Assembly: GCF_003334335.1 (NCBI RefSeq)
Contig: NZ_QOWQ01000020.1
From: Escherichia coli
GTDB lineage: Bacteria; Pseudomonadota; Gammaproteobacteria; Enterobacterales; Enterobacteriaceae
Length of the DNA stretch: 64,000 bases
Strand: one strand, 5' to 3'
Shown: piece after piece, positions 34,892 through 34,995 of the stretch
How positions within the stretch are numbered: the stretch's first letter is position 1
How the letters are laid out: each line of letters starts with the position of its first letter
Notes under the pieces: model-generated
The model's database searches: none
What the model was told of the DNA's origin: nothing
Seen by the model: the letters and a program-made list of their open reading frames with translations, nothing else
Made by a program: the position numbers and the translations under genes

Positions 34892-34995
34892 GCCGGATGC
34901 GGCGTAAACGCCCTATCCGGCCTACATGACGTTGCAATTTATTGAATCTGAATGATTTTTTAGGCCAAATAAGGTGCGCAGCACCGCATCCGGCA
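34892..34995. repeat. BIME with two inverted REP units and an internal A/T-rich core (RIP-like)
   Basis: GCCGGATGCGGCGTAAACGCCCTATCCGGCCTAC ... GTTGCAATTTATTGAATCTGAATGA ... TAGGCCAAATAAGGTGCGCAGCACCGCATCCGGCA. Confidence 0.7.

Follow-up and report, generated by a model that had tools for sequence, protein, structure and literature searches.

Two short palindromic elements lie in convergent gene gaps of a 64,000-nucleotide stretch of Escherichia coli DNA (contig NZ_QOWQ01000020.1), which is referred to here as the window. Element 1 occupies the gap between yigE (34088-34852, + strand) and uvrD, for which the mechanically called open reading frame spans 34999-37350 on the - strand and the annotated gene is 2163 nt long. 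The yigE stop codon (34850-34852) is 39 nt upstream of the element, and on the other side the uvrD stop codon (34999-35001) is separated by only 3 nt from the end of the element at 34995. Element 2 occupies the gap between aslA (49149-50804, + strand), whose stop codon at 50802-50804 is 28 nt upstream of the element, and aslB (open reading frame 50963-52228, - strand, also a mechanical span), whose stop codon at 50963-50965 is 25 nt away from it. These stop coordinates bear out the convergent arrangement that the preliminary description had assigned to both loci. Its coordinates for element 1 (34892-34995) are exact as well, but its placement of element 2 at 50843-50947 is about 10 nt off, and the element really spans 50833-50937. 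A cluster of four tRNA genes adjoins aslB (52348-52781, - strand) and scores above the Rfam threshold. Other above-threshold Rfam matches in the window are the Erse small RNA (14915-15166, - strand, 319 bits) and GlmZ (48518-48724, - strand, 218 bits).

The window is E. coli K-12-like chromosome. The 700 bases around element 1 have a match in 5426 of 5426 complete E. coli genomes, with 100% identity in K-12 MG1655 and many other strains, and yigE and uvrD are the genes annotated there. The orientation of the window is the reverse of that of MG1655 (NC_000913.3), where the equivalents of elements 1 and 2 are found at approximately 4000149-4000252 and 3984219-3984323, respectively. The NC_000913.3 record has no REP features wherever it was checked, the obvious BIME between fre and fadA included, and is uninformative for these loci. 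The distance from element 1 to element 2 is 15943 nt in the window and 15931 nt in MG1655. At 47205-47231 the hexanucleotide ACCTGC is repeated perfectly in tandem (x 4.5), and the 12-nt excess of the window could consist of two additional ACCTGC units.

Both elements start with GCCGGATGCG and end with CGCATCCGGCA, and a repeat search of the window finds one BIME unit at each locus. Each unit is built, as had been claimed, from two inverted REP sequences that are arranged tail to tail, with the GCCGGATGCG heads facing outward and the CCTAC/GTAGG tails facing inward. The left arm of element 1 (34892-34925, + strand) is a Y-type REP with the sequence GCCGGATGCGGCGTAAACGCCCTATCCGGCCTAC. It has 94% identity to the Y consensus, scores 58 for Y and 21 for each of Z1 and Z2, and is identical at 33 of 35 positions to the reverse complement of the Y arm in element 2. 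The linker that follows is 35 nt long (34926-34960, + strand), and its core, TGCAATTTATTGAATCTG, contains an exact match to TGCAATWTATTGAATYTG on the + strand only. The right arm (34961-34995, - strand) is a decayed long REP of ambiguous type, with 75% identity to Y, 73% to Z2 and 78% to the long arm of element 2. It has TTAGGCCAAATAAGG where GTAGGCCGGATAAGG is expected, which creates two mismatches in the basal stem, and the G of its GTAG is missing. A description of element 1 as two degenerate Y arms was dropped because the right arm scores nearly equally for Y and Z2.

Element 2 begins with a long Z2-like REP, GCCGGATGCGATGCTGACGCATCTTATCCAGCCTAC (50833-50868, + strand), that scores 42 for Z2, 35 for Y and 20 for Z1. 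Its linker is 34 nt long (50869-50902, + strand), has the core TGCAATTTATTGAATTTGCAC and also matches TGCAATWTATTGAATYTG exactly. The right arm (50903-50937, - strand) is a Y-type REP, GTAGGCCGGATAAGGCGTTTACGCCGCATCCGGCA, with 94% identity to the Y consensus, and over 37 nt it is 100% complementary to a REP at 7736-7772.

The two linkers have a near-identical core in common, which was the central claim of the preliminary description. The 15-mer TGCAATTTATTGAAT is found without change at 34933-34947 and at 50876-50890, on the + strand in both cases. When the linkers are aligned over their length, 26 of 35 positions match, and the repeat search reports the pair of elements as a 61-nt direct repeat with 80% identity. 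With up to three mismatches allowed, a 21-mer core is confined to these two sites in 64 kb, and 100 shuffles did not yield it once, so the likeness of the linkers goes beyond what chance and the REP arms would produce. It had been allowed that the similarity might be confined to the arms and that the core might lack an IHF-like motif. Alignment and a motif scan find instead that the similarity extends past the arms and that such a motif is present. The idea that two unrelated A/T-rich spacers resemble each other by accident can be regarded as refuted, since nothing speaks for it except the short length of the core, and the same 18-mer is present between REP arms at a minimum of 68 other loci in addition to being absent from the shuffles.

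This core identifies the linkers, which at 34-35 nt with an exact TGCAATWTATTGAATYTG match correspond to the L linker of BIME-1 (RIP/RIB) elements, and the earlier suggestion of a RIP-class element thus holds for both loci. The term BIME-1 belongs to the nomenclature of Gilson, Bachellier and Hofnung. The name RIP was reportedly given to these elements by Oppenheim et al. in 1993, and the name RIB is said to come from Boccard and Prentki in the same year. Descriptions of BIME-1 elements and of the IHF site they contain date from 1991-1993, and these elements have been catalogued in the K-12 genome. In published accounts, the two REPs of BIME-1 are one y and one z1, and between them lies a long, well-conserved linker L that often includes an IHF site (PMC3333891; PMC2817692). 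We estimate a probability of roughly 85% that both elements are members of this class with atypical arms. The finding is already known in the sense that it concerns a long-described E. coli intergenic repeat, and the identification is correct but ordinary.

The breadth of the family is evident from a scan for TGCAATWTATTGAATYTG in one genome per bacterial species, which yielded at least 120 loci. Among the loci listed, 53 are isolated matches in unrelated organisms that have no REP nearby, and at least 68 are further copies with REP arms, which come from Escherichia albertii, three other Escherichia lineages and two Pseudocitrobacter genomes. Their usual layout is a short REP, GCCTGATGCGCTACGCTTATCAGGCCTAC, followed after about 7 nt by TGCAATATATTGAATTTGCA and, after another 7 nt or so, by an inverted Y REP, GTAGGCCGGATAAGGCGTTCACGCCGCATCCGGCA. 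A survey of 647 kb of enterobacterial sequence found 72 REP pairs in tail-to-tail orientation, and the lengths of all their linkers were recorded irrespective of content. The distribution is bimodal, with one mode at 14-17 nt that has no core and the other at 33-36 nt. The L core is matched by 64 of the 65 linkers in the longer mode, the exception being a diverged variant in E. albertii (L018:3303), and three linkers of 25 nt contain a truncated or diverged part of it. When a 45-nt canonical linker is used as query, all 5426 complete E. coli genomes give matches, at a median of at least 29 places each. Canonical Escherichia-type BIME-1 copies were also encountered on short contigs labelled Desulfosporosinus sp. 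OT (L037, 262 nt) and Methylobacterium frigidaeris (L108, 261 nt), and in an 'uncultured Bacteroides' MAG (L070). These three copies look like enterobacterial contamination of the assemblies.

BIME-2 elements, which are tandem Y-S-Z2 arrays and gyrase targets, have the Y arm in common with elements 1 and 2, and the Z2-like arm in common with element 2. However, BIME-2 linkers are short, lack the L core and occur in tandem arrays, whereas elements 1 and 2 are single units with an L linker. The link to gyrase is documented mainly for BIME-2, and affinity for BIME-1 is lower (PMC1475751; PMC6379681). The window contains a BIME-2-type cluster between fre and fadA (7633-7824), in which four REPs alternate between Y and Z2. 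Its tail-to-tail linkers are 14-15 nt long and have no L core, and positions 7692-7769 (- strand) within it match naRNA4 at 92 bits, above the threshold for that family. A solitary Y-type REP, GTCGGATGCGGCGTAAACGCCTTATCCGACTTAC, is located at 26707-26752.

Elements 1 and 2 share with canonical BIME-1 the inverted tail-to-tail REPs, the L linker of 34-35 nt, its core and the IHF-like 13-mer within it, and they are likewise single copies in extragenic positions at the 3' ends of transcription units. They differ from it in their arms. Canonical BIME-1 has Z1 and Y arms, whereas element 1 pairs a Y arm with a decayed long arm and element 2 pairs a Z2-like arm with a Y arm. Mixed combinations of this kind are classed as atypical BIMEs in the published scheme, although these are described as multi-copy (PMC3333891). 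The arms of 70 copies were typed by aligning them to consensuses for Y, Z1 and Z2 that had been checked against sampled copies. The layout is Z1-L-Y in 59 of the 70, with the short Z1 arm that element 2, whose long Z2-like arm has a CCGGAT base, does not possess. It is Z2-like-L-Y in six (one of them ambiguous), a group to which element 2 and its orthologues (L095 and L118) belong, while four copies have one arm missing. The single remaining copy, with the layout Y-L-ambiguous, is element 1.

The polarity of the linker also sets element 1 apart. A rule derived from this sample has a Z arm, an L linker in the TGCAAT orientation and a Y arm in that order, and element 2 agrees with it. In element 1 the Y arm is on the TGCAAT side of the linker, the opposite of what is found in all 66 other Y-classifiable copies and in eight copies that were found independently. 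Because the core 18-mer fits the family pattern in one orientation only, the linker of element 1 is flipped relative to its Y arm, where the unambiguous left Y arm is the sole point of reference. The same flip is present in a diverged K-12-type allele of this locus (L125). Most copies of the family also have conserved outer flanks, written as gatgacaaacgcaaaattgcc... and ...tgaacaaagcg or as ...gatgacaaacgcaaaattGCC and GGCAtgaacaaagcg.... Neither element has these flanks. Element 1 is bordered by gaagatggcgcagat and acgttacacc, and element 2 by gagatctgccttt and atcaaccgcag.

An IHF site in the shared core was a further part of the preliminary description, and a motif scan locates the 13-mer ATTCAATAAATTG in both elements (34935-34947 and 50878-50890, - strand in each case), one mismatch away from the consensus WATCAANNNNTTR. 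The core reads ATTCAA-N4-TTG and then CA, so that consensus position 2 is a T instead of an A. In element 1 the 13-mer is preceded on the - strand by AAAAAA, an A6 tract located 8-14 nt upstream on the same strand, and element 2 has no such tract. We take the core to be similar to lambda attP H' and to other high-affinity IHF sites, which presumably combine WATCAANNNNTTR with an upstream A-tract. Sequences within one mismatch of WATCAANNNNTTR occur 47 times in the window, where 46.7 are expected, which is the frequency of chance. A motif match alone is therefore weak, and the support for an IHF site comes from conservation in the family and from the literature. A search of the literature for locus-level IHF ChIP or GeF-seq signal yielded none, with these genes going unmentioned in PMC8407004, and a search of supplementary material for uvrD, yigE, aslA and aslB found nothing.

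Conservation can be judged from nine copies that were found independently of the core, either through their REP arms or by low-stringency BLAST. This is a small sample, in which the conserved 13-mer itself was used to set the copies in register. The reverse complement of the 13-mer, CAATNTATTGNAT, is exact in eight of the nine and is the best-conserved segment of the linker. In seven of those eight, the TG and TTTGCA beside it are altered without compensation. A constant 13-mer between changing flanks would fit a protein-DNA site better than an RNA helix, and we regard this pattern as supportive, not decisive. From the family pattern and what is published on the class, we infer that IHF may bind both elements. 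The diverged E. albertii linker mentioned above, aagagaatATCAACACATTGAATtttcgcgacttt, contains WATCAANNNNTTR without mismatch (TATCAACACATTG) on the strand opposite to the one usual in the family, plus a one-mismatch site on the usual strand.

Transcripts of the elements are predicted to be highly structured. In the predicted RNA fold, each element as a whole forms a single extended, imperfect hairpin that has the A/T-rich core at its tip. Predicted folding energies for element 1 are -45.7 kcal/mol for RNA of the + strand, -53.9 kcal/mol for RNA of the - strand and -23.6 kcal/mol for DNA of the + strand, and the corresponding values for element 2 are -60.4, -67.3 and -36.2 kcal/mol. The decayed arm of element 1 weakens its hairpin. 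The z-scores of the RNA folds range from -4.6 to -9.8, and no shuffle is as stable.

In an Rfam search, no family scores above threshold on either element. The naRNA4 family (RF02564), which represents the BIME-2 unit, reaches 44.8 and 42.9 bits on single REP arms, compared with a gathering threshold of 59.5 bits. ES036 (CssrF, RF02751), which has a gathering threshold of 37.6 bits, scores 30.0 bits on element 2 (50875-50896, - strand) and 19.5 bits on element 1 (34918-34959). The ES036 consensus (43 nt, AAAuUUGUGCAAAUUCAAUAAAUUGCAGGAaAUACGUAGGCCU) is the - strand of the L linker running into the REP tail GTAGGCC, and it includes the same 13-mer, ATTCAATAAATTG. Within the matched segment, element 2 is identical at 22 of 22 bases to GUGCAAAUUCAAUAAAUUGCAG, which corresponds to model positions 7-28. 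The Rfam family appears to model part of a dispersed repeat and not a single sRNA gene. CssrF was observed as a northern-blot band from the gap between dacB and yhbZ in Shigella (PMC3071730). CssrF is one specific transcript, about 290 nt long, and its locus is neither yigE/uvrD nor aslA/aslB.

These matches and folds could be taken to mean that the elements work at the RNA level alone, whether as hairpins in 3' UTRs or as a small RNA of the ES036/CssrF type whose apical loop is the A/T-rich core. The strength of the whole-element folds, the local identity of element 2 to ES036 and the northern-blot detection of CssrF favor this explanation, and yet we consider it doubtful. Both ES036 scores fall below the gathering threshold. 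The model's five-base-pair stem, UGCAA/UUGCA, which is formed by the bases flanking the 13-mer, is broken without compensation in seven of eight independent copies, and it is broken in element 1 itself (UCAG.../UUGCA). What is conserved corresponds to the unpaired bases of the loop. In addition, a promoter scan of both gaps gives results at chance level, with no promoter-like site inside either of them.

The position of G+C-rich hairpins this large between convergent genes also raises the question of bidirectional intrinsic termination. A small hairpin with a T-rich tail is indeed present on the uvrD strand within the right arm of element 1 (34985-34973, - strand), but it does not rise above chance. 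The whole-element hairpins are not followed by a U-tract in either element. A terminator scan finds one site per region, where 1.1 and 0.7 are expected, and the site for the element 2 region is inside aslB and so outside the gap. Paired terminators of this kind thus seem very unlikely. REPs are reported to attenuate transcription and stabilize mRNA without being classic intrinsic terminators (PMC12306157). An RNA-only role and a classic terminator role both fit the data less well.

The loci that hold these two BIME-1 units vary in structure among strains. The K-12-type element 1 is present between yigE and uvrD (34853-34998 in the window) in 3012 of 5426 genomes and is missing in 2414 (about 44%). 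Sampled representatives of the non-K-12 type include O157:H7 F6667 (L123/L127), ATCC 25922 (L124) and one further locus (L126). In the sampled genomes without element 1, an extra 903-nt gene that is annotated as a member of the SAM hydrolase/SAM-dependent halogenase family lies between yigE and uvrD, and the BIME is replaced by a 31-nt perfect hairpin, GCCGGATGCGGTG-TGGCG-CACCGCATCCCGC, which consists of the outer heads of both REPs.

The aslA/aslB gap (50805-50962) takes no fewer than five structural forms in E. coli and its relatives (L129, L095, L130, L131 and L132). These alleles are listed without frequencies, since counts from megablast coverage are distorted by REP arms that match one another. 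The K-12 type is also found in O157 and in Escherichia sp. E1V33. In Z0117EC0005 and 'E. coli' E69, the whole BIME is inverted and its left flank is different. ST131 retains a heads-only hairpin remnant with its junction in a GCATC direct repeat, and another allele has a single truncated Y REP with its junction in ATCCGGC. In O111:H8, the 3' end of aslA has been deleted together with the left arm, and the gene is annotated as a pseudogene. That deletions have their junctions in short direct repeats is consistent with slippage across a palindrome.

Because both loci are polymorphic among strains, neither element is indispensable, and this dispensability in nature argues against a strong locus-specific function. 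The elements might then be neutral or selfish remnants of REP/BIME spread through TnpA-REP/RAYT or recombination, with no host function at these loci and with a linker that is conserved only by recent descent. We regard this as a real if minority possibility. It agrees with the absence of element 1 from 2414 genomes, with the inversion, heads-only deletion, single-REP and aslA-truncation alleles of the aslA/aslB gap, with the decayed arm of element 1 and with the published proposal that BIMEs are non-autonomous mobile elements (PMC2817692; PMC3333891). However, decay in diverged copies is uneven, leaving the IHF-matching 13-mer intact and its flanks altered, and the same linker has been retained across Escherichia species and Pseudocitrobacter. 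The dispensability of both elements keeps a largely neutral status as a serious rival, and it is one that is compatible with IHF binding.

What is unusual about these two BIME-1 copies, and only mildly so, is limited to the flipped linker of element 1 and to the inversion and collapse alleles that the two loci show in parallel. It is conceivable, though we would not expect it, that element 1 arose naturally by a flip confined to the L linker between the inverted REP tails, which would have turned the asymmetric IHF site around as well. Taken with the whole-element inversion and the collapse to head-only hairpins that strains show at the two loci, this would make BIME-1 units modules that can invert and collapse, with turnover inside the species.

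If the two elements function as the literature on BIME-1 suggests, they could act in both DNA and RNA. In duplex DNA, the L linker would be bound and sharply bent by IHF. Since each element is located in a convergent gap, the transcripts of both neighboring genes would also include it in their 3' untranslated ends. Stable RNA hairpins could then form from the REP arms or from the entire element, impeding 3'-to-5' exonucleases and attenuating read-through. By analogy with the class, such hairpins may influence the 3' ends of the yigE, uvrD, aslA and aslB mRNAs. An additional effect may apply to uvrD. REPs less than 16 nt past a stop codon are reported to stall ribosomes and to lower translation of the upstream gene (Liang 2015, as related in PMC12306157). 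The distance of 3 nt at uvrD is within this range, whereas those at yigE (39 nt), aslA (28 nt) and aslB (25 nt) are not. A REP-linked reduction of upstream-gene expression could therefore concern uvrD only.

As a discovery, the identification of these elements carries little weight. Their class is recognizable from the raw sequence, the two copies are atypical and both loci are polymorphic. The structural polymorphism is relevant to any use of the elements as markers, and the REP located 3 nt past the uvrD stop codon is relevant to the study of uvrD 3'-end regulation. If BIME-1 modules do turn over as the flipped linker of element 1 might indicate, then this turnover would alter the direction of the IHF bend and the 3'-UTR structure of uvrD and of aslA/aslB between strains.
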